43,483 bases of DNA from a virus (Duplodnaviria; Caudoviricetes): positions 1 through 43,483 of IMG/VR virus record IMGVR_UViG_3300026534_000004; one strand, 5' to 3'. The notes beneath the pieces are model-generated. The model searched no databases, was not told the origin of the DNA, and saw only the letters and a list, made by a program, of their open reading frames with translations. The position numbers were made by a program, and so were the translations under genes. The stretch's first letter is position 1. Every line of letters begins with the position of its first letter. This document shows positions 1 through 14,756 of this stretch, in pieces.

Positions 1-49
1 TGGCGGCTTTCCGTGCCGGGCCGAACATAAATTTACGGGAATGGGGGAA

Positions 50-126
50 TGGCGCCCTCGAGACGATTCGAACGTCCGACCTACCGCTTAGGAGGCGGTT
101 GCTCTATCCGGCTGAGCTACGAGGGC
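50..126 (-). tRNA. tRNA-Arg(CCT), integration target, intact copy
   Basis: Minus strand folds as a cloverleaf: GCCCTCG acceptor stem, D arm, ACCGC-CTCCTAA-GCGGT anticodon arm, GGACG-TTCGAAT-CGTCT T arm, encoded GCCA end. Confidence 0.95.
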
Positions 127-127
127 G
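84..127 (+). repeat. att core, left copy (44 bp)
   Basis: ccgcttaggaggcggttgctctatccggctgagctacgagggcg is identical to 43357-43400. Confidence 0.95.
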
Positions 128-135
128 AGTAATAA

Positions 136-148
136 AATCAAACACTTA
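136..148 (+). promoter_or_regulatory. IHF binding site in att arm
   Basis: AATCAAACACTTA matches WATCAANNNNTTR; a second match lies by the right att. Confidence 0.7.
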
Positions 149-191
149 GCTGCTCGCGTCTCTCTTTGTCCTGCGGATTGTGTCCAAGATT

Positions 192-220
192 TGGACAATT
201 TGCGATTAAATCCGCATAAT
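192..220 (+). promoter_or_regulatory. Putative integrase promoter overlapping TGGACA-like arm-type repeats
   Basis: TGGACA-17 bp-CATAAT. Inverted repeat tgtccaa-gat-ttggaca at 181-197; TGGAYA repeats at about 234-251 and 43302-43320. Confidence 0.55.
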
Positions 221-255
221 CCGAGATCCCTGGTGGATACATAGTGGACACGGAG

Positions 256-1224
256 ATGGCGTCGATCCGCAAGACGCGGAGCGGCCGGTTTCAAGCAGTG
301 GTGCGGGTGCGCGGATACCCGACGGTGTCGCGTGTGTTCCGCACTCGCAGCCAGGCCCGAACCTGGGCGCAGCGCGTCGAGGATGATATGCGACTTGGGA
401 CCTGGCGGCAAGACGTCGGGGTCACGGTCGGGGATGTGCTCGACCGCTATCTGCGCGAGATCGTGCCGCTGAAGAAAAGCTGGGCATTCCATCGAACCAA
501 TTGCACGAATCTGGCCAAGGGGCTGGGGCGGGTCTTGCTCGCACGGCTGACAGCGCAGGACGTGGTCGCTTACGTCCGCTCCAGGCCGGTATCGCCATCC
601 ACAGTGCGCAAGGAGGTGAACACCCTGTCGCATGCCATAGATACAGCCGTGGCGCTGTGGGGGTATGAGATCACTGGTGACCCGGTGGGCAATGCAAAGC
701 GCATTTTGCGGGTGACCAAGGCGCTATCTCCTGCGCCGCCGCGCAACCGGCGCCTGGCTGACGGTGAGGAAGAGGCGCTACTGGCGGCCCTGGGCCGGTC
801 TCCAGAAACCAAGCTGCTGGCGCTGCTGACGCTGGCAACGGGCCGGCGCTTGAAAGAGTTGCTATCGATCTCCGATGAGGTGTTGGTGCGGCGCGGTGGC
901 CGCCTGCTGCTCGAGGTGCGCGATACGAAAACCGATCATCCGATCACGGTGCCGCTGTCAGCGGAGGCAGAGGCGCTGCTGGAGGGTTTCGACGGGTTCA
1001 CGATGCGGCCAGACAGCTACAGCCAGGCGTTCATGCGGGCAGTGAAGCGAGCCGGGTTGCGCGATCTTCGGCTGACGGACCTGCGGCACGAGGCGCTGTC
1101 TCGGCTGTTCGAGCGCGGGCTGTCGGTGCCGGAGGTCATGGCAATCTCAGGGCACCGAAGCCCGGATGTGTTGCTCAGGGTATATTCTCAAGTGGATGCG
1201 GATCGATTGAGTGATCGGCTATGA
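256..1224 (+). CDS. int: Tyrosine recombinase / phage integrase
   Basis: N-terminal MASIRK arm-binding-like segment; TGRRLKE, DLRHE, SGH and C-terminal Y motifs; adjacent to att. Alternative GTG start at 244. Confidence 0.92.
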   Translation: MASIRKTRSGRFQAVVRVRGYPTVSRVFRTRSQARTWAQRVEDDMRLGTWRQDVGVTVGDVLDRYLREIVPLKKSWAFHRTNCTNLAKGLGRVLLARLTAQDVVAYVRSRPVSPSTVRKEVNTLSHAIDTAVALWGYEITGDPVGNAKRILRVTKALSPAPPRNRRLADGEEEALLAALGRSPETKLLALLTLATGRRLKELLSISDEVLVRRGGRLLLEVRDTKTDHPITVPLSAEAEALLEGFDGFTMRPDSYSQAFMRAVKRAGLRDLRLTDLRHEALSRLFERGLSVPEVMAISGHRSPDVLLRVYSQVDADRLSDRL

Positions 1225-1437
1225 TTGAGCGGCCCATACCTCCAGCGCGAATTGCACTAGGTACGGGCAAGGGCGATAGCTTCGGTTCTCCGGCCGTGTC
1301 AGATATTTGCGGAACAGCGTCTCGTCAATGCCTAGCTGGCGGGCGATGGCTCGCTGTGACATGCCTATCTGCTCGATCAGTTCTCGCAGATAGGCAGGGT
1401 CTGGATTGTGCTGTGATATGTCCGGGGTGGCCATCAT
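1219..1437 (-). CDS. aca1: Anti-CRISPR-associated HTH repressor, Aca1 family
   Basis: TPDISQHNPDPAYLRELI..SQR..A..LG..YL..YRPCPYLVQFALE matches recalled Pseudomonas phage Aca1 (TPDASNHDPDPRYLRGLL...YRPAPYTVQFALE) over the full length. Confidence 0.85.
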   Translation of the reverse strand: MMATPDISQHNPDPAYLRELIEQIGMSQRAIARQLGIDETLFRKYLTRPENRSYRPCPYLVQFALEVWAAQS

Positions 1438-1745
1438 GCTCGCCCTGGTTTGTGGCTGACGGACTGCCCGCGCAGCTCCTCGATGAGCGCTTCCTGCGCT
1501 GTGTCCTCCATGACCGGATCGGGTGGCTCGCCGTTGGCACGGGCGATGGCATACCAGACAGTCAGCAACTGCGCCAGGTTGTCCTCTGGCGCGTTGAAAA
1601 ACAGGGCCTCGTCGATTCCGCTGGCGGCGCAGATACGGCGGATCACATCTGCGTCGAATTCAAGATCACCATCGGCTGTGCGGGACAGACTGAGGTCGGA
1701 AAAAGCCATCCCCTCGGGGATGGCGATGTTTACTTTGTCTTTCAT
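1434..1745 (-). CDS. Small acidic protein, candidate anti-CRISPR/anti-defence protein 3
   Basis: 103 aa, acidic, overlaps the aca1 start; function inferred from context only. Confidence 0.6.
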   Translation of the reverse strand: MKDKVNIAIPEGMAFSDLSLSRTADGDLEFDADVIRRICAASGIDEALFFNAPEDNLAQLLTVWYAIARANGEPPDPVMEDTAQEALIEELRGQSVSHKPGRA

Positions 1746-1966
1746 TATGCTTGGTCTCTGTCGCTGTCAGCCTTAATCTGGTCCAGTTCTGAGCATGATT
1801 CCCAATAGGATTTTGCCCGCTCATCCGCAGTCATCTGTCCGAATGCCTTACTCATGATTTTATAGGCCATTCCGAGCGAGACATTACTGATCCCAAGAGC
1901 TGCAAGTGGTTTAGGATCACCCGCCAAACGCGCTGCGGCTGCATCAAATAGTTTTTTGTTTTCCAT
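1745..1966 (-). CDS. Small protein, candidate anti-CRISPR/anti-defence protein 2
   Basis: 73 aa MENKKLF..., GGAGG RBS, 1-bp overlaps with both neighbours. Confidence 0.55.
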   Translation of the reverse strand: MENKKLFDAAAARLAGDPKPLAALGISNVSLGMAYKIMSKAFGQMTADERAKSYWESCSELDQIKADSDRDQA

Positions 1967-2187
1967 CACTTTTCCTCCGTCCATGCTTCTTTGTGACTGA
2001 TGATTTCTCCCGCTTCCTTGAGCTTCTCAAGACCGGCAAGTCCCTGCTCCATGGGGTAGATTGTGGGGTTTGCACCATTTACCCCGACGTGGACTTCGTT
2101 GCGTTCCTCATCGATTTTAATGGTGTATTCCTTCCCGTCATAATTGATGACCCATGTTTCAAGGTGGTTAATGGTGATGAGTGCCAT
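1966..2187 (-). CDS. Small acidic protein, candidate anti-CRISPR/anti-defence protein 1
   Basis: 73 aa MALITINH..., GAGGAGAGG RBS, first gene after the strong promoter. Confidence 0.55.
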   Translation of the reverse strand: MALITINHLETWVINYDGKEYTIKIDEERNEVHVGVNGANPTIYPMEQGLAGLEKLKEAGEIISHKEAWTEEK

Positions 2188-2248
2188 TTTCCTCTCCTCG
2201 CCCTTCCGGGCTGGTTCTGGCGCTCGGGGCCAATCCCCTGCGCTTGTG

Positions 2249-2290
2249 ATTATAGTAGCGCCATTGGTCGCTAATGTCAACAGTTTTTTT
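2249..2290 (-). promoter_or_regulatory. Strong sigma70 promoter of the acr-aca1 operon with putative Aca operator
   Basis: A-tract, TTGACA (2280-2275), 17 bp, TACTAT (2257-2252). Imperfect palindrome TAGCGCCATTGGTCGCTA (2256-2273) spans the spacer. Confidence 0.8.
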
Positions 2291-3014
2291 ACAGCCAGCC
2301 GTTTTTTTTCGCGAGGCGCCAGGCATCGGGGTAATGCTCGCGCAGGTACTCGATGCGGCCGTGCGACTCGCCAGAGCGGCCGATGATGCCGTTGCGGGCG
2401 TTTGGCCCCATGCGATGGTAGATGTCGAGGATGGGGAGGTCTCGGGTGACGATGTGGGCCCAGACATCGGTTGTACTCCAGCGTGCGATGGGCAGATAGG
2501 CTCCGCCGCCGGCGGCGTAGTTATAGGCAGCGCCGCGTTTGGCGATGAGGATGCGTCGAGCGCGGCTCTCGTCTGCGCGCAGGCCCATGACGCGGTGGGT
2601 GAGGCCGTGTTGTTCCGCGTAATCGTAAATCTGCGCGAACATTTCGTTGTGGATAGCCTGCTGGTAGTCCTCGACGGATTCCTGGGCGCGGTTGCCGCCC
2701 CATTTGTCCCAATCGAACCGGTGGAAATTCCATCCTGCGCGCTCGATCCAGCGCAGCCATTGGGCTCGATCCTCGTCCGTCCAATGGGTAGGGGTGCCAG
2801 GGTCGATCATGAGGATGGGGATGCCGGGGTGGACGCGGTGACAGAGATCGGCGACGACGGCGCTGTCTTTGCCGGCACTGAATCCTACATAGGTGACGGC
2901 TGGGTCGATGGCGCGAATGATCTCGATGGCCTGCCGCAGTTTGTTTCTATATCCTGGTGTTTGTGCGTGGCTGATGCAGGCTGCGCACCAGATGGGTGTC
3001 ATCTGGGTGGCCAC
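2289..3014 (-). CDS. cysH: CysH/PAPS-reductase-like protein (type IV-B associated)
   Basis: PP-loop VGFSAGKDS, IDPG, MGLRADES..R, PIARWSTTDVWAHI motifs; last gene of the csf operon. Confidence 0.85.
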   Translation of the reverse strand: MATQMTPIWCAACISHAQTPGYRNKLRQAIEIIRAIDPAVTYVGFSAGKDSAVVADLCHRVHPGIPILMIDPGTPTHWTDEDRAQWLRWIERAGWNFHRFDWDKWGGNRAQESVEDYQQAIHNEMFAQIYDYAEQHGLTHRVMGLRADESRARRILIAKRGAAYNYAAGGGAYLPIARWSTTDVWAHIVTRDLPILDIYHRMGPNARNGIIGRSGESHGRIEYLREHYPDAWRLAKKNGWL

Positions 3015-3520
3015 GGCATGATCTCCGGCAGGTAGATGAGGCCGCAGCCGAAGGCCCGGTTTTTCCCGATGCCGAACTGCAGCAGGCTGGCAAACCGTCC
3101 TCGATCGTGGACTTCGATGACGCCAGTTGTTTGCGCAACGCGCGCTGTCACGCCGTTTTTGATGCGGATGATTTCGTCCTCGAAGCGGACAAAGCGCAGC
3201 GTGGCCGCGTCGCCGAGTTGGCGTTTGAGCCAGTCGCGCCGGCGGAATCGATCATGGATCTCACGGCGCTTGTAGCCGTGTGCTTTCTCGCGCTTGGTGA
3301 TGACAAGATCGGCTGCAAACGACACAGGGCGCCCTGTCGGGATGCTGGACAGTGGCAGTTCAGTGCATGGATGGTGCGGCCTGGTGATGCTGAGCATCAA
3401 ATAGCCGTCGTCCATGCGGCGGTAGAGAAACTTCCTCGGCCCGTCATCGAACAGCGTGTGCAGGTGCTGGTGCACCTCATATGTCGGTATGTTTGGCAGT
3501 TTGACTTGGCTCAGAAACAC
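2999..3520 (-). CDS. cas6e: Cas6e (CasE/Cse3-like) crRNA-processing endoribonuclease
   Basis: GTG start with GGAGG RBS. MFLSQV..YEVHQHLHTLF..FLYR resembles the CasE N-terminus with the catalytic His; C-terminal Gly loop GIGKNRAFGCGL. Confidence 0.85.
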   Translation of the reverse strand: MFLSQVKLPNIPTYEVHQHLHTLFDDGPRKFLYRRMDDGYLMLSITRPHHPCTELPLSSIPTGRPVSFAADLVITKREKAHGYKRREIHDRFRRRDWLKRQLGDAATLRFVRFEDEIIRIKNGVTARVAQTTGVIEVHDRGRFASLLQFGIGKNRAFGCGLIYLPEIMPWPPR

Positions 3521-4161
3521 GGCTGTCCCTCCACGCAGTCTTCCCACCAGGGCGAGTACCAATAGGGTGGGCACCAGGGCCGCAGCGGCGCGGCCGTCCC
3601 GGTAGCAAGTTGTGCTCGCGCCGGGACGTTGCGGCGCTCCACGATGAATGCGGGGTCGATGTCCGCAAGCTCGACGCGCCATTCATGCACCGCGCCGTAG
3701 CCAGCCGCACCGTGGGGACCGATGGAGCGCACATCGTCCAGTAATTGCTGGATGTCGTCCGGCTCGCAGTCGTTGTCCATGATGAGCGCGGCGCGCCATT
3801 CTCGCGCGACGATAGTTTTGATCGGTTTGCGACGCTCCTTGAACTGGCCCGCCGCGGTGTTGATCTTCATCTTTCTGCCGAGGTTGGCGCGCTGCGATGG
3901 GTAGCGCTTGTGCAGATACTCACGGCCCTCGATGACATCACTGATCGGATAGATGTCTGTGGCGGCCCAGAGCGGTTTACCGTATTCATCAGTCCATAGA
4001 CGTGCCAGCGGGATGGGAACCGGCACTGGGCCTGTCTCCTGCATGGACGGCAGCACCTGGTGGCCTGCAGATGCCCACGCGAGCAGCGAGGCGAGGTTCT
4101 GTCTGGCCACGCCGGCAACAACCGGGGTCGTGACAGTAGCGGTGACGATCAGGCCGCGCAC
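3511..4161 (-). CDS. csf3: Csf3 / Cas5-family RAMP (type IV)
   Basis: RAMP first strand LIVTATVTTPVV, Gly loop SIGPHGAAGYGAV, C-terminal RPWCPPYW; follows the Cas7-like gene. Confidence 0.75.
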   Translation of the reverse strand: MRGLIVTATVTTPVVAGVARQNLASLLAWASAGHQVLPSMQETGPVPVPIPLARLWTDEYGKPLWAATDIYPISDVIEGREYLHKRYPSQRANLGRKMKINTAAGQFKERRKPIKTIVAREWRAALIMDNDCEPDDIQQLLDDVRSIGPHGAAGYGAVHEWRVELADIDPAFIVERRNVPARAQLATGTAAPLRPWCPPYWYSPWWEDCVEGQPCF

Positions 4162-4994
4162 AGCACTTTCTCCGTGCCGAGTGTGCCAGTGGTCAGCCCG
4201 TCGCGCATGGCATCGTGATGGCCTGCAATATGATCGAGATAGGCCTCGCCCTTATTCGGCAGCGAGGCGCAGACGATCTCGACGCGGCCACGACCTTGCC
4301 GTGCCTGACCGCCGATGTAGCGATCCCAATTATCCAGGGCGATGTCGATGCAGCCGAGGGTGGCGTCCGGGCAGAGGTCATCCAGGGTGAGTTCGATGTG
4401 GATCTTCGCGCCGGCGGCGAGCGTCTCGTAGGTGTAGAGCATCTGATTGCCATCTGAGCTGCTGCCTGTGCCGCGCGTGCGCGTCTCCTCGTCGAGCAGG
4501 TCGAACGCGGAGACCTGCCTGGCCTCATCCTCCAGCTCAGGCGCGACCAGCGCGAGGGGGTCGGCGTATTCACGTGCGACCAGCCAGGCGGCGATGCGCA
4601 GACGGGAGCGTGGCAGGATGAAGCCATCGACGGCGCCACCGAGCAGATCGAGGCTAGGGTAGAGCGAACGGATCATGTGGCCCAGCTCGATGTCGTTTGT
4701 TGGCGCCTTGGCGCCGGCCTTCATTTGCCCGCCAGAGTACAGCAGGTTGACGACGGTTTGCGGCACACTGCCGGGCGTGATGTCGAGTTCGTCAACTAGA
4801 TGATCGGCCAGTGGGGTGCGGAACAGGGTGGCGCGCAGCGCGTTCTCGCTGATGGCTGGCACCCGCGCTGGCACTCCATTGACGAGCATGTTCTGGCGCA
4901 TGAACAAGCGGGTGTTGGTCTGGTTATCGATGCCAGTTACGGTGTCACCGTGGGCAATCGGTGTGATGGTCTGCAGCGTGATCGAGTATTTCAC
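4149..4994 (-). CDS. csf2: Csf2 / Cas7-family backbone subunit (type IV)
   Basis: LQTITPIAHGD, VPAISENALRATLFR, LYSGG, PSLDLLGG, QMLYTYETLAAG, IGGQARQGRG motifs. Confidence 0.85.
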   Translation of the reverse strand: MKYSITLQTITPIAHGDTVTGIDNQTNTRLFMRQNMLVNGVPARVPAISENALRATLFRTPLADHLVDELDITPGSVPQTVVNLLYSGGQMKAGAKAPTNDIELGHMIRSLYPSLDLLGGAVDGFILPRSRLRIAAWLVAREYADPLALVAPELEDEARQVSAFDLLDEETRTRGTGSSSDGNQMLYTYETLAAGAKIHIELTLDDLCPDATLGCIDIALDNWDRYIGGQARQGRGRVEIVCASLPNKGEAYLDHIAGHHDAMRDGLTTGTLGTEKVLCAA

Positions 4995-5416
4995 AGGATG
5001 CCCTCCAGAGAATCTTCAAAATCGTCATAGTTGGATTCGGTCGTTTGCAATGCCGACCGTTTCGGTTTTTCGGCGCTGTGGATCATGCGCGCGATAGTGA
5101 CGATGCTCACCGCCTCGGTTGCCAGACAGCGCAGCACGTCGCCCTGTTGGTCTGCACGGAAGAAACCGGCAATCTGGCTGTCGAATTTCGTTGGCGGAAC
5201 AGGCCACCGCATCTTGCGTAGCAGGGCCGCCCAGAATTCCGGGATGTTGCGGCTCTGCACGGCGCACAATTCCACGCGCCCAGCCAGTACGGGATAGCGT
5301 GTCGTGCCGGTGAACAGGCCGGTGCCGTCCACCGAGTTAAAACAATCCAAGCTGAGCTTGATCAGTTTCACCGCGGTCTGTTGCGGCGGGGTCAGCGTGT
5401 CGAGCAGTGTTTGCAT
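4991..5416 (-). CDS. cas11: Cas11-like small subunit (type IV-B)
   Basis: 141 aa predicted helical protein between csf1 and csf2, the cas11 position in IV-B loci; assignment is mainly positional. Confidence 0.6.
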   Translation of the reverse strand: MQTLLDTLTPPQQTAVKLIKLSLDCFNSVDGTGLFTGTTRYPVLAGRVELCAVQSRNIPEFWAALLRKMRWPVPPTKFDSQIAGFFRADQQGDVLRCLATEAVSIVTIARMIHSAEKPKRSALQTTESNYDDFEDSLEGIL

Positions 5417-6131
5417 GAGCTCGTTTCTCCTCTTTGGTTACGCCGGCCATGAGCAGGGCCGGCAGGAATTCGGGGCGCTGGCGCAGGTTGGCCAGGGTGG
5501 ATTCCAGGCGCATGGTCTCCGCCGGGTCGCGGCTGGCGCGCTTGTAGTCGTTGAACAGCGAATGATAGATCGCGCTCTTGGCGTAGCCTGCGCGCAGGAT
5601 TGGCAGTATTTCGTCGATAGCGCGCAGCAGGTCGGCAAGATCGAATTGGCGCCACTCGCTCACGTCGTAGTCTGGCGCGTGCACATACAACCCGAACCGT
5701 TCGATGCTGGCCAGTTGGCAGCGGTGCCACAGCCGGATTTTCACGTCGGTCGTGAGCACGCCGGTAATGGCGGTTTGGCCTGGCAGGCGGGCCAGATCGC
5801 GGATGATCTGCAGCCATGGGCGCTTGTCCTGCACTACTGACTCGACCGAGATCACCGCCAGCTCAAAACCCGTCGGCGCGCTGGCGATGAAATTCCCTGG
5901 GCGCCCTTTGCCGATATCCATCAGCCAGGCGCATGGGATGCAGAAATGCGTGGCCGTGCGGAAACGGAATAGTTGCGAGTCGCCGACGGTTGTGCTCTTG
6001 ATGATCTTCTTGGTCGGCACGCCTTTGTGGCGTATTTCATCTCCACATATCATGCAGCGTCCGGATGCGGGTTCAGGATCGTGTTTCGGTGCGGGCTGTC
6101 CTGCCGACAGCCAAATGAGTTCTGACGGCAT
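5337..6131 (-). CDS. csf1: Csf1 / Cas8-like large subunit (type IV)
   Basis: 264 aa with N-terminal Zn finger (CMICG...FCIPC); first gene of the RAMP operon. Confidence 0.72.
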   Translation of the reverse strand: MPSELIWLSAGQPAPKHDPEPASGRCMICGDEIRHKGVPTKKIIKSTTVGDSQLFRFRTATHFCIPCAWLMDIGKGRPGNFIASAPTGFELAVISVESVVQDKRPWLQIIRDLARLPGQTAITGVLTTDVKIRLWHRCQLASIERFGLYVHAPDYDVSEWRQFDLADLLRAIDEILPILRAGYAKSAIYHSLFNDYKRASRDPAETMRLESTLANLRQRPEFLPALLMAGVTKEEKRAHANTARHADPAATDRGETDQAQLGLF

Positions 6132-6337
6132 CAGCTCGCCCTCCTGATCCGCCCCAACTGCTGCCGCATGGCCTCGTCCAGTAGCATGTTGAGCATGCTG
6201 CGCGGGTAGACTTTGATTTTTCCCAGGCGCACCGGCTCGGGGAAGTCGCCACGGGCGATGTATGTGCTCAACGTCTCGCGCTTGACGCGGAGCTTTTCGG
6301 CCATTTCGTCGATGGTGTAGAAGTCGTCGATTGGCAT
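6131..6337 (-). CDS. Excisionase/AlpA-like winged-HTH protein
   Basis: FYTIDEMAEKLRVKRETLSTYIARGDFPEPVRLG is a typical Xis/AlpA pattern. Confidence 0.75.
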   Translation of the reverse strand: MPIDDFYTIDEMAEKLRVKRETLSTYIARGDFPEPVRLGKIKVYPRSMLNMLLDEAMRQQLGRIRRAS

Positions 6338-6338
6338 G

Positions 6339-6686
6339 CTACCCCCTGCTGACCAGATCAGGCCGTGTGATGTGGTTGACCGGACTGATGACTCGATCGT
6401 TATCGTCGAATTCGGCAACGCCGATGTGGTCGAGGTACTCGATATATTCACCGCGCAATCCGCCGAGCGATACGCACCAGACGGGCTCCAGTGCGTCGCG
6501 CAGGTCGGCGCAGGACTCGCAGGTTTTGTACGTCGACCACTCGCCGCCCCACATCCCATTGATGACCTGGTAGCGCTCGCCAGGTTTGATCGCGCGGCGG
6601 CACTCGCAACAGATGTGCGGCTTGCGCGCGGTGTGCCAGGTTTCGTTGATCAATGTCGGTTGTTCGGTGTCGATGCAGCAGCTCAT
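6339..6686 (-). CDS. Cys-rich (Zn-binding) phage hypothetical protein
   Basis: TARKPHICCEC...YKTCESC; GGAGG RBS. Confidence 0.7.
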   Translation of the reverse strand: MSCCIDTEQPTLINETWHTARKPHICCECRRAIKPGERYQVINGMWGGEWSTYKTCESCADLRDALEPVWCVSLGGLRGEYIEYLDHIGVAEFDDNDRVISPVNHITRPDLVSRG

Positions 6687-6702
6687 TGGTCACCTCCGTT
6701 GT

Positions 6703-7338
6703 TCAGTCTCCACCGCATCGAATGGCATCAAAAATGACCTTCTTCCATTTTTTCCACCAATCCAACGCTTTTTTGTCCATTTTTTTGATGTCGTCATCAG
6801 AAAATGATTGCCAAAGCTCAATGGAATGTTGTTGGCAGCCTATTGCCAACTGATTCTTCCACCAAACAACGTGATATCGAGGTAACAACAAAGTGGAATT
6901 CGGCAAGATGCACAAACGCAAGTCAGACCCGATTAAGTTAGCTCCACTCAAGTTAGACCCGCTTAAGTTAGCTCCACTCAAGTCAGAGCCGCTTAAGTTA
7001 GCTACACTCAAGTCAGAGCCGCTTAAGTTAGCTCCACTCAAGTTAGAGCCGCTTAAGTTAGCTCCACTCAAGTTAGACCCGCTTAAGTTAGCTCCACTCA
7101 AGTTAGAGCCGCTTAAGTTAACCCCACGTAAGATAGCTCTACTCAAATCAACGTTGCATAAGACAGCTCTACTCAAGTTAGATCCACTCAAGTCAATCCT
7201 GCGCAAGACAGTTTTGTTCAAGATGGCCCGACGGCCATCTTGTCCGTTTGTCTCCAACCAGAGATTATGATCGTCTAAAATTTTTTTGATATTCATGTTT
7301 ACCTTCAGTTTGCCACTTTTCATGTCCACGGTGTTCAT
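6703..7338 (-). CDS. Pentapeptide-repeat protein
   Basis: Many (A/S)(N/D)LSG pentapeptides; C-terminal IGCQQH..W domain; start chosen at the repeated GGAG-ATG unit. Confidence 0.88.
   Translation of the reverse strand: MNTVDMKSGKLKVNMNIKKILDDHNLWLETNGQDGRRAILNKTVLRRIDLSGSNLSRAVLCNVDLSRAILRGVNLSGSNLSGANLSGSNLSGANLSGSNLSGANLSGSDLSVANLSGSDLSGANLSGSNLSGANLIGSDLRLCILPNSTLLLPRYHVVWWKNQLAIGCQQHSIELWQSFSDDDIKKMDKKALDWWKKWKKVIFDAIRCGGD
6931..7120. repeat. Near-perfect 30-bp tandem repeat (about 6 units) encoding pentapeptides
   Basis: Unit gcttaagttagctccactcaagttagaccc and minor variants, in frame. Confidence 0.9.
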
Positions 7339-7350
7339 GACGATCTCCAC
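7326..7350. repeat. 25-bp direct repeat, copy 1 (RBS+ATG unit)
   Basis: ccacggtgttcatgacgatctccac is identical at 9284-9308. Confidence 0.9.
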
Positions 7351-7402
7351 TACGTTCGCGCCATGTATTGTCTTGCAGGCCATCCAGTTTCAGGTGTTCA
7401 TC

Positions 7403-8233
7403 TCATTCCCCTCCTGCCAGCATCATCCATGCTGCTGCCGCTTGCAGCGGGACTTGGCCGTTACCGAGTGCCCTTATCCTGTCCACCCGATTGGCCACCC
7501 CATCAGCCATTCGACCCACTCCGGGTTCAGCCGTCCACCAGGCCGGACGATGCCCGCAGCGGGGTCGTTCAGTTGCCTCCTTCGCTGTCCTGGATTGCCA
7601 GCCGTTCTCCAGCAGCCCGCGTCCGGGGTTGGCCACATGGTTGCAGCCGCTGCCAGTAGCGGACGCCCATGGCTTGAGTTGCCCGCCATACTCCCAATCC
7701 CCTGCCTCGCCGTTGTCGCTGTCGGTGTCGGAAGCAGCCCGGCTTGCCAGGCACCACCATCGAGCGCGTAGGTGCGGGGCACCAATTGCGGAAGCTGGTA
7801 GCACGCACCATCGAGCGTCATACCCCATGGCGGCCAAGTCTCCAAGCACTCTGCCGAGTCCTCGAACAGTGATTGCTGGGGAGTTCTCCAGGAATATGTA
7901 TCGTGGTTGAATTTCGCCAGCCACCCGGACGACTTCCGACCAAAGGCCTGAGCGCTCGCCGTCAATGCCTGCCCCAGCTCCGGCGACTGAAATATCTTGG
8001 CAAGGGAATCCCGCATGGATGCAATCCACTCGTCCATTCCAGTCGGATGGGTTGAACAATCGGATATCTCCCTCCCACACGTGCAATTCAGGAAACCATC
8101 CATCAGATGCCCTTTTTCTCAGAACTTCGCAGCAAAATTTGTCATATTCGACAGCGCAAATTGGTTGATGGCCGAGAATTAAATCTGCTAACAAGCCTCC
8201 CCCGGCCCCGGCGAATAAGTGCATAGTCTTCAC
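7403..8233 (-). CDS. DNA cytosine-5 methyltransferase (alpha polypeptide)
   Basis: Motif I LFAGAGG, IV GFPCQD, VI ENS, VIII HLRARWW, X ALGNGQVP. Confidence 0.92.
   Translation of the reverse strand: MKTMHLFAGAGGGLLADLILGHQPICAVEYDKFCCEVLRKRASDGWFPELHVWEGDIRLFNPSDWNGRVDCIHAGFPCQDISVAGAGAGIDGERSGLWSEVVRVAGEIQPRYIFLENSPAITVRGLGRVLGDLAAMGYDARWCVLPASAIGAPHLRARWWCLASRAASDTDSDNGEAGDWEYGGQLKPWASATGSGCNHVANPGRGLLENGWQSRTAKEATERPRCGHRPAWWTAEPGVGRMADGVANRVDRIRALGNGQVPLQAAAAWMMLAGGE
7474..8103 (-). CDS. Nested alternative-frame ORF, putative MTase beta polypeptide carrying motif IX
   Basis: 209-codon open frame inside the MTase ending RLNPEWVEWLMGWPIGWT, with PTP repeats; start uncertain. Confidence 0.65.
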   Translation of the reverse strand: MDGFLNCTCGREISDCSTHPTGMDEWIASMRDSLAKIFQSPELGQALTASAQAFGRKSSGWLAKFNHDTYSWRTPQQSLFEDSAECLETWPPWGMTLDGACYQLPQLVPRTYALDGGAWQAGLLPTPTATTARQGIGSMAGNSSHGRPLLAAAATMWPTPDAGCWRTAGNPGQRRRQLNDPAAGIVRPGGRLNPEWVEWLMGWPIGWTG

Positions 8234-8259
8234 GCTGGTTTGCTCCGTAGCACTTTATG

Positions 8260-8451
8260 TTATTGCCCCTTCATTCTTTTGAGCCATCGCGTGCGCGCCG
8301 CCTTGCACCATCGGCACATGCGATAGGTGAACCGAAACGCCTCGATGGGCTCGTCTTGGTGCGGTGGATAAAGCGGCCCGATGATCTCGTCGATAACGAT
8401 CTCTCCTGGGCGTTTCCAGCAGTTCTCACATAAATCAGAACGGGATGTCAT
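8260..8451 (-). CDS. Small CxxC-containing hypothetical protein
   Basis: [11 protein letters not shown]...MCRWC; overlaps the end of ssb. Confidence 0.55.
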
Positions 8452-8839
8452 CGTCAAAATCCTGCGGCCCAGGTTGTTGCACCGGCTGCTGGGCGTTTCC
8501 GCGGCTGTCGAGCATCTGCATCTCGCTGGCAACGATCTCGGTGGTGTAGCGGTCGCTGCCGTCCTGGGCCTGCCACTTGCGGGTGCGCAGGCTGCCCTCG
8601 ATGTAAACCCTGTCTCCCTTGCCCAGGTACTGCCCGGCGATTTCCGCCAGGCGGTTGAAGAAAACCACCGTGTGCCACTCTGTGCGCTCCTGCTTCTCCC
8701 CGGTGTTTTTGTCCTTCCAGGTGTCCGATGTGGCAATCCTGATGTTCGTCACTGCCATCCCGGTGCTTGTGGCCCGCTGCTCCGGGTCCGCCCCCAGGTT
8801 GCCGATGAGAATGACCTTGTTGACGCCTCTGCTTGCCAT
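8435..8839 (-). CDS. ssb: Single-stranded DNA-binding protein
   Basis: [20 protein letters not shown]...DFDDDIPF. Confidence 0.97.
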
Positions 8840-9219
8840 TACCGCTCCTCGTCGATGTCGATGTCAGTGACAGGGCAATTCGGCGCGTGCTTGCCGGCCG
8901 GCCAGTCTTTACATGTCGCGGCACAGATGCTGCGCGCCCAATCTTCGATATGATTGAGTCGGTCGGCCATCTGTTCTAGCAAAACGGCCATTTCCGTGGC
9001 TGCGGCCATGAGACGTGCGTTTGCAGCTTGTTCTTTATTGCCTATGCGGTAACTGCCCGTTGAGGCGATTACGGTTGAGCGACACGAATCCGCGATAGGC
9101 ACCTCAAAACATGCTTGCGCATACACGCCGCCGTTGGCCACTTTCCATGGTTTTGGTGTTGTGCTGTTACGCAAAGACGCAAGTTCGCGTGCGCGTTTAA
9201 TCAGCTCGTCGTTGTTCAT
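8839..9219 (-). CDS. Phage hypothetical protein (Ead/Ea22-like N-terminus)
   Basis: TTPKPWKV...ANARLMAAA pattern; coupled to both neighbours. Confidence 0.6.
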
Positions 9220-9634: not shown

Positions 9635-9710
9635 TGGAGCCACCGCGGAGAGTCGAACTCCGAACCGACTGAGTACAAAACAGCTGCTCTGCCATTTGAG
9701 CTACGGTGGC
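9635..9710 (-). tRNA. Phage tRNA-Thr(TGT)
   Basis: GCCACCG acceptor stem, D arm, GCTGT-TTTGTAC-TCAGT anticodon arm, CGGAG-TTCGACT-CTCCG T arm, TCCA end. Confidence 0.88.
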
Positions 9711-13380: not shown

Positions 13381-14307
13381 TCAACCGTCCTCGCCTGGAG
13401 GATGCAAATTGTATTTCTTGATCACATTGCCGCTGACCGGATCAATATAGGTCGTTTCGGTAACACACAGCGTCACACTCTGTCCAATTCGGAGATCGGC
13501 AATCAATTCAGGATGACGTCTGTCGAAGCGGATCCTCGCCGTTCCTTCCTGTGTTCGCAGCTCGATTCGTCCCGTTGCAGCCAACAAGGCCACTTCGCCG
13601 GAAAGTTCAACTTGCTGTTCGGCAGGCTCTTCCACCGCCTCAAGTGCAACTCGCAACGTGGCCATTTGCGGCACAGTGGCCGACCAGTGGTAATGCTTGC
13701 CATCAGGACTGTCCCAGGAGAACTCGCAGGCCAACGATTCGCCTTCCATGGCCTCGATCAGCGCGGCAAGGCTTTTGCCGGCCCGAATACCGATGTTGTG
13801 CAGTTTTTCAATGAAGTCGCTGGTTGGCGCATTCAAAATCTCGAACAGGGCGGACAAAGCGTCCTGTACCGGCGAGTCGCCAGCCAGATCCGGCGCAACG
13901 TTCGCCGTGAGGATCATGCGCGAAGAACCGTGTGCCAATCCGGCCAAGCGCAAATCGATCATATCAGCCCACTCCCTGGGGACATGGTGAGCATCATGCT
14001 GATGGCGCAGCTTGTACGAGGCATACAACACTAGCTTGTTCAGCGGTTCTGCCAACTTGGCCACCAGATGCAGCGGCATGGAGGTATTCAGCACCTTCTG
14101 TCCGGCCAACCGCAGCTCGAAAATCTCTTTTCTGCGCCGTGCCTGCTCGATCTCGAGCGCGCGCTGAAGCTCCTGCAGGCGATCTTCCCAGGACGCCTTG
14201 AAGAAGGCGCGTGTGTGGTCTTCAAGGTCCTGGCGTTCTTCGTCATATCCGGCCATCAGGCCGCGGACGGTTTCGATTTCAGACTGAAGTTCCGCAATAC
14301 GATTCAT
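13381..14307 (-). CDS. Hypothetical protein coupled to the nucleotidyltransferase
   Basis: 308 aa with N-terminal coiled coil and beta-rich C-terminus; ATGA overlap with the upstream NTase. Confidence 0.75.
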   Translation of the reverse strand: MNRIAELQSEIETVRGLMAGYDEERQDLEDHTRAFFKASWEDRLQELQRALEIEQARRRKEIFELRLAGQKVLNTSMPLHLVAKLAEPLNKLVLYASYKLRHQHDAHHVPREWADMIDLRLAGLAHGSSRMILTANVAPDLAGDSPVQDALSALFEILNAPTSDFIEKLHNIGIRAGKSLAALIEAMEGESLACEFSWDSPDGKHYHWSATVPQMATLRVALEAVEEPAEQQVELSGEVALLAATGRIELRTQEGTARIRFDRRHPELIADLRIGQSVTLCVTETTYIDPVSGNVIKKYNLHPPGEDG

Positions 14308-14756
14308 AGCGTTACCACCGCAATGCCTTTGGGTGTTCTTCGGTCGCGGCAGAAGCCGAACAGTCCACGCCAATAAGCAAATTCTGTCTCTCTGCCGTCA
14401 TCAGGAATATAGTAGACATCGCACCCGAAGCGAAATTTGGCCTGCCGGTTGTCCAGCAACGCGCGCAGCGCGGCTTGGTTTTCGCGCGACAAGGCATTGG
14501 TTTTTCTGGCATTCAGCACCAGAAGCAAATCAACGTCGCTCGGGTTCGGTTTGGCCGTGACGTAAGAGCCGTCTATCCAGACAGAGGCCGGTATCTCAAA
14601 TTCGCAGAACGCCTCCAGAAAGGCAAGGAGGCTATCTGTCAGGTTTTCGCGGGTAGGTGACGAAACTGGCTGAAGAAAGAGTGTTTTGATCTGGTCGACG
14701 GTAATGTCGTGAAACCCAGGCGCCAGCAGCGCCGGGTAATCAGTCTTTGCTTCCAT
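14304..14756 (-). CDS. Pol-beta-superfamily nucleotidyltransferase (DUF6932-like)
   Basis: LLAPGFH, VWIDGSYVTAKPNPSDVDLL, PKGI motifs. Confidence 0.78.
   Translation of the reverse strand: MEAKTDYPALLAPGFHDITVDQIKTLFLQPVSSPTRENLTDSLLAFLEAFCEFEIPASVWIDGSYVTAKPNPSDVDLLLVLNARKTNALSRENQAALRALLDNRQAKFRFGCDVYYIPDDGRETEFAYWRGLFGFCRDRRTPKGIAVVTL

Follow-up and report, generated by a model that had tools for sequence, protein, structure and literature searches.

The phage DNA analysed here probably carries an Aca1-autorepressed anti-CRISPR/anti-defence operon, which belongs to a lambdoid temperate phage and combines a short AcrIC6-family gene with two orphans. On sequence grounds it appears to be a genuine acr-aca1 operon of an already known type, with one of its three cargo genes in a known Acr family. 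The whole stretch of 43,483 nucleotides (IMG/VR record IMGVR_UViG_3300026534_000004), called the window below, encodes an integrase, RecE/RecT, CI-, CII- and O/P-like proteins, terminase, capsid and tail, as expected of such a genome. The operon has the convergently oriented integrase on one side and a type IV-B-like cluster on the other; the features of this region are listed here.

50-126: tRNA-Arg
244..1224, plus strand: tyrosine integrase, convergent with aca1 and adjoining the tRNA-Arg
1219..1437, minus strand: aca1, 72-aa helix-turn-helix (HTH) repressor (PDB 7c0g, E 1.1e-17; phrog_3865, E 3e-21)
1434..1745, minus strand: ORF3, 103 aa, of the AcrIC6 family, without the N-terminal extension of ~40 aa; pI 4.3, net charge -10
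1745..1966, minus strand: ORF2, 73 aa, pI 5.2, orphan candidate
1966..2187, minus strand: ORF1, 73 aa, orphan candidate
2196..2243, minus strand: 5' UTR, predicted to fold into two hairpins (2243-2220, 2214-2196; z -2.9)
2252..2290, minus strand: sigma-70-type promoter read from the sequence, with an A-tract, TTGACA (2280-2275) and TACTAT (2257-2252); related copies in locus L008 (n=3)
2256..2273: imperfect inverted repeat with 7-bp arms and a 4-nt centre, putative and likely operator of the window's Aca1 variant
2289..6131, minus strand: type IV-B-like cluster of csf1, a 141-aa gene, csf2, csf3, cas6e and a cysH-like gene

The initial annotation had described a near-consensus promoter followed by coupled small genes and an Aca1-like HTH, and both descriptions hold. 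The A7 tract (2290-2284), which overlaps the stop of the cysH-like gene, leads on the minus strand to TTGACA, 17 nt and TACTAT, the hexamers matching the consensus at 10 of 12 positions. The four reading frames of 73, 73, 103 and 72 aa are coupled by the stop/start overlaps TGATG, TAATG and ATGA, and purine tracts resembling Shine-Dalgarno (SD) sequences precede ORF1 and ORF2. Within the 5' end of ORF3 lies a terminator-like hairpin followed by T5 (1705-1724, minus strand), which could attenuate expression of ORF3-aca1 or be a coincidence. A second copy (at least 12 nt) of the tRNA-Arg 3' end was sought across the window and not found.

Functional assignment of the cargo is firmest for ORF3. 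An exhaustive search yielded 273 relatives, some of them 140-151 aa long, a group that we took to resemble AcrIC6 before checking the assumption by gene context. AcrIC6 comparators were identified by operon context and length, by way of the Aca10 operator given in the available part of PMC9410881. The search for this operator gave three viral loci. One of them, L057, has the acrIC7-acrIC6-aca10 promoter as published there (TTGCAA-16-TATTCT, with IR1 and IR2), followed by genes for 94, 144 and 65 aa; the 65-aa product matches PDB 7XI5, the Aca10 of that study, at 100% identity, and 144 aa is the length stated for AcrIC6 in the accessible text of PMC8949011. ORF3 is 49% identical to the L057 144-aa protein over ORF3 residues 1-103 (E 1e-28). 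In locus L062, an AcrIC7 88% identical to that of L057, the same figure as appears in the available portion of PMC7913775, comes before a homologue of 144 aa and an Aca4-like HTH of KORA type. Identity of ORF3 to the proteins of L061, L062 and L064 is 50/97, 52/97 and 48/97 over AcrIC6 residues 48-144, and the ORF3-family profile covers residues 41-144 of the three genes (E 5e-41 or better). The L064 gene is presumably the tested AcrIC6 allele WP_080050315.1. Judged by these alignments ORF3 is a member of the AcrIC6 family, and the operon has a known-Acr-family gene upstream of its aca. This membership overturns the initial count of three uncharacterised genes; ORF1 and ORF2 alone stay unassigned. 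Like AcrIC6 in the acrIC7-acrIC6-aca10 and acrIC7-acrIC6-aca4 operons, ORF3 stands directly before an aca gene and is acidic; it differs in its pairing with aca1 in place of aca4 or aca10 and in its length of 103 aa versus 144 aa. The family had no match among PDB sequences, nor did ORF3 in a tblastn search of GenBank phages.

ORF3 lacks the first ~40 residues of the 144-aa protein, which the tested form of AcrIC6 carries. The short form prevails in the family: among the 150 representatives listed of the 273, 120 have at most 115 aa, some perhaps being fragments, and eight carry the N-terminal motif; the 28 viral loci of the family comprise 17 long, nine short and two unparsed forms. By eye, the extension resembles a ribbon-helix-helix (RHH) fold, a reading that is unverified: it had no match in a Pfam scan, and no literature linking AcrIC6 with RHH was found among the matches listed. 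In L077, L079 and L083 the N-terminal module is fused to the upstream gene and a short AcrIC6 follows, suggesting that the extension is a detachable module. The upstream fusion gene of L077 contains an AcrIF1-like part (E 7e-4, below the cut-off). According to the available part of PMC13530269, an RHH-Acr fusion is already known in AcrIE10. By description, AcrIE10 and Aca14 are RHH-type acr regulators whose RHH module is either joined to an Acr or encoded beside one, a precedent that could explain the AcrIC6 extension; ORF3, unlike them, has no such module. As a naturally shortened form, ORF3 could help to locate the part of AcrIC6 that acts on Cascade.

AcrIC6 is a weak inhibitor, with an EOP of ~0.01 where the others reach ~1, and it leaves CRISPRi by type I-C unblocked while blocking that by type I-E (PMC7913775, available portion). 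It is reported to act at DNA binding against I-E. We lean slightly towards ORF3 weakly inhibiting the Cascade of type I-C, type I-E or both, probably at this same step. HTH-type Pfam matches were obtained for 17 of the 24 downstream ORFs scanned in the 28 viral loci, many of them below Pfam cut-offs and from loci that are in part near duplicates, and such an ORF follows in six of the nine short-form loci. Among seven plasmid matches examined, six have no aca-type HTH annotated directly downstream, which places part of the family outside acr operons. This distribution bears on an alternative that we consider unlikely, in which the Aca1-repressed early operon is real and its cargo acts on non-CRISPR defences or host physiology, the anti-CRISPR activity of AcrIC6 being a side activity. 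The weakness of AcrIC6, the spread of the family over 273 representatives and onto conjugative plasmids without aca, and the many non-Acr genes held by Aca-regulated operons (PMC13551039, as far as its available text goes) all fit such a role. Against it stand the block of I-E CRISPRi and the company kept by the relatives, which lie beside AcrIC7-like genes in four of the 28 viral loci and beside an AcrIF1-like gene in one.

We privilege the anti-CRISPR reading of the operon, in which its last gene encodes the repressor. The 72-aa product aligns with Aca1 of phage JBD30 (PDB 7c0g) over residues 3-69 with 34 of 67 identical positions, counted by hand (about 51%), bearing out the Aca1-like assignment. 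It retains R22, S31, Q32, R33, R47, Y49, R59 and F67, which are DNA or dimer contacts of Aca1 in the accessible part of PMC8633003; of the backbone-contact and dimer residues, R22, S31, Q32, R33, Y49 and F67 are thus kept and S42 and T64 differ. S42D, R44T, V45L and Y48K are changed, as is T64; three of the five base-reading residues (R44, V45, Y48) differ, and R47 and R59 alone are kept. As the same source, in its available part, describes R44 and V45 as variable in bacterial Aca1 homologues, which may bind other targets, the altered base-reading residues mark a variant of Aca1 and not a non-member.

The initial annotation placed a palindrome between the -35 and -10 boxes. The repeat is present, TAGCGAC-N4-GGCGCTA over 18 bp at 2273-2256, although its right arm runs into the -10 box by two bases. 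It is the sole match in the window at two mismatches or fewer. Taken by itself it is weak evidence, since 7.9% of 3000 random spacers between the same hexamers hold a 7-bp-arm repeat with at least six of seven matches; support comes from three related copies in which the arms are conserved and the centre varies. These copies are found in L008, which belongs to another phage and is one of nine viral loci with Aca1, whose Aca1 is 75% identical to that of the window and whose sequence has the same promoter three times. All four copies (the window and the three of L008) agree in the outermost five bp of both arms and differ from one another in the four central bases, the asymmetry being flipped in one. 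The conservation of the arms is partly due to shared descent because the flanks are conserved too.

The organization recalls the acrIF1-aca1 operon of JBD30 (Aca1 PDB 7c0g, 7fa3 and 7vjm), where aca1 is likewise last, an inverted repeat lies within the core promoter, and a hairpin of two stems around an internal loop, which the first predicted hairpin of the window resembles, comes just past the predicted start. The differences concern the operator, which in JBD30 is GGCAC-N3-GTGCC in two repeats and in the window a single repeat with 7-bp TAGCG(A/C)C arms around a 4-nt centre, and the four Aca1 substitutions R44T, V45L, Y48K and S42D; the window has in addition a second UTR hairpin and other cargo genes. 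Since the operator is not that of JBD30 and three base-reading residues are changed, we can only infer binding of Aca1 to the repeat; repression through this DNA element is likely by analogy. Aca1 and its operator may have shifted sequence together, and the pair could show how Aca1 specificity evolves.

That the Aca1 variant does not read this repeat, which would be a chance occurrence or the site of another phage repressor, is improbable in our view. The chance rate given above and the three changed residues speak for it, as does a scan for promoter plus repeat in three collections. The pattern occurs in 39 loci, 35 of which have no Aca1 in their flanks, the other four being the window and three overlapping views of the L008 contig. 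The invariant arms with variable centre, the flipped asymmetry, the uniqueness of the match in the window and the Aca1 of L008, with similar substitutions beside the same repeat, weigh on the other side. As a finder of sister operons the scan was discarded, as it gave mostly unrelated elements; L008 is the only independent element sharing the regulatory module with the window. In L019-L055 the same -35 with palindrome heads many unrelated genes without Aca1, and the AT-rich phage of L019 has serial promoters of this type.

L008 also carries a chimeric ORF (3969-4304) with an ORF3-like 5' part and an aca1-like 3' part, joined at a short microhomology common to the ORF3 and aca1 genes of the window. 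Its structure suggests that it arose by deletion between tandem ORF3 and aca1, and the chimera points to an ancestral adjacency of the two genes. After its aca1, L008 has three tandem promoter-gene cassettes (3200-4650) whose genes of 94, 90 and 115 aa have no Pfam matches and are further anti-defence candidates. Another aca1 operon, in L010 (221-875), contains a gene for 67 aa, presumably AcrIE5-like.

The two hairpins of the 5' UTR are predicted in the window and in all three L008 copies (z -2.7 to -3.5), and the second one (2214-2196) touches the SD. According to the available part of PMC13551039, 207 acr-aca1 operons carry an RNA hairpin immediately past the start site; this Aca1 RNA motif consists of a lower and an upper stem with at most two unpaired bases between them, and JBD30 Aca1 binds the hairpin at about 61 nM. 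The first hairpin of the window matches this verbal account, its position being relative to a start site that is itself predicted. Whether Aca1 of the window would bind it is, by analogy with JBD30, an even bet. The canonical acr-aca layout proposed initially is supported in part, by the Aca1 identity, the predicted Aca1-type UTR hairpin and the AcrIC6-family ORF3; the palindrome is not the JBD30 operator.

In the scheme that we favour, the strong promoter would be used by the host's sigma-70 polymerase when the DNA enters or at induction, and ORF1-3 would be made in a burst. As the last product to be translated, Aca1 would then sit as a dimer on the repeat, spanning the -35/-10 spacer, to shut off transcription, and would shut off translation by binding the first UTR hairpin. 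ORF1 and ORF2 would be recently acquired cargo, most likely further anti-defence proteins. Their recent acquisition is suggested by a GC content of 48% against 57-63% in aca1, ORF3 and the cysH-like gene.

ORF1 is acidic (pI 4.8, net charge -7) and has a confidently predicted small fold of a four-strand meander, a helix and a strand (pLDDT 84); the Atlas model of ORF2 is weaker (pLDDT 0.67). Neither has a match in Pfam, PHROGs, NCBIfam, PDB sequences or the Atlas, nor by tblastn in GenBank phages or in plasmids, nor a relative in 87 fetched loci or in viral contigs, where a word-seeded search returned only the query itself. Their orphan status is provisional because this tool is insensitive: for ORF3, the one protein searched exhaustively, it found a single relative against 273. 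Fold searches with the ORF1 model listed no Acr, and Foldseek had no match at E 0.001 or better. Several candidate likenesses were set aside, namely a CYTH-type fold for ORF1 (best Z 6.4 at an rmsd of 5.9, treated as a common arrangement), matches below threshold of ORF1 to aldose epimerase and of ORF2 to DUF3604, and a relative of ORF2 in L087 reduced to 11 residues in an unrelated frame. In the available text of PMC13551039, 450 genes are reported under predicted Aca1/Aca2 control, less than half with an assigned function; the 27 candidates tested in PMC7913775 may bear on ORF1 and ORF2. That either of the two is an Acr is a tentative idea for each; they are well-placed orphan candidates in an operon whose nature is backed by Aca1 and by a cargo gene from a known Acr family.

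The cluster upstream resembles type IV-B CRISPR-Cas in its csf1, small gene, csf2, csf3 and cysH-like gene, in having no dinG, and in that no CRISPR array was seen in window positions 1-9000; the csf scores lie below curated cut-offs. The 141-aa gene has no family match and sits at the place of cas11, an assignment by position only. Usual type IV-B does not encode the Cas6e found here (TIGR01907, 51.4 bits against an NCBIfam cut-off of 45.2), Cas6 being a rare exception in this type according to the accessible part of 10.1101/780106. No csf2 relatives were found in viral contigs, nor in plasmids at E 1e-10. This IV-B-like cluster, carried by a phage and including Cas6e, may be a rarer find than the operon.

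An ambitious version, in which ORF1 and ORF2 found two new Acr families, the short AcrIC6 is the true active core, and the operon forms a single counter-CRISPR island with the Cas6e-bearing cluster, is quite improbable; if true, such an island would give type IV-B a testable role. We regard as very improbable that operon and cluster are one counter-CRISPR unit in which host crRNA is sequestered by Cas6e together with the Csf complex, and ORF1 or ORF2 acts with or on this complex, since the shared strand, the cysH-like stop in the promoter A-tract, the location of both modules between an excisionase-like gene and the integrase, and the rarity of Cas6 in type IV-B (10.1101/780106 and PMC8175902, available parts) are set against the operon's own promoter, an L008 module with no csf, cas6e or cysH match in its ~9 kb (L047), the presence of cysH, cas6e and csf2 in none of the 28 AcrIC6-family loci (2.5-kb flanks), and the prospect that both modules simply occupy an accessory hotspot.

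Beyond the cluster, the window has a pentapeptide-repeat gene of low GC content that contains a 15-bp tandem repeat (6703-7383, minus strand); its matches to Qnr-type models are far below cut-offs. The CI-like gene is closely followed by a DUF6932 nucleotidyltransferase-like gene (14304-14756, minus strand), and at 9635-9710 on the minus strand the phage has an internal tRNA-Thr(TGT).
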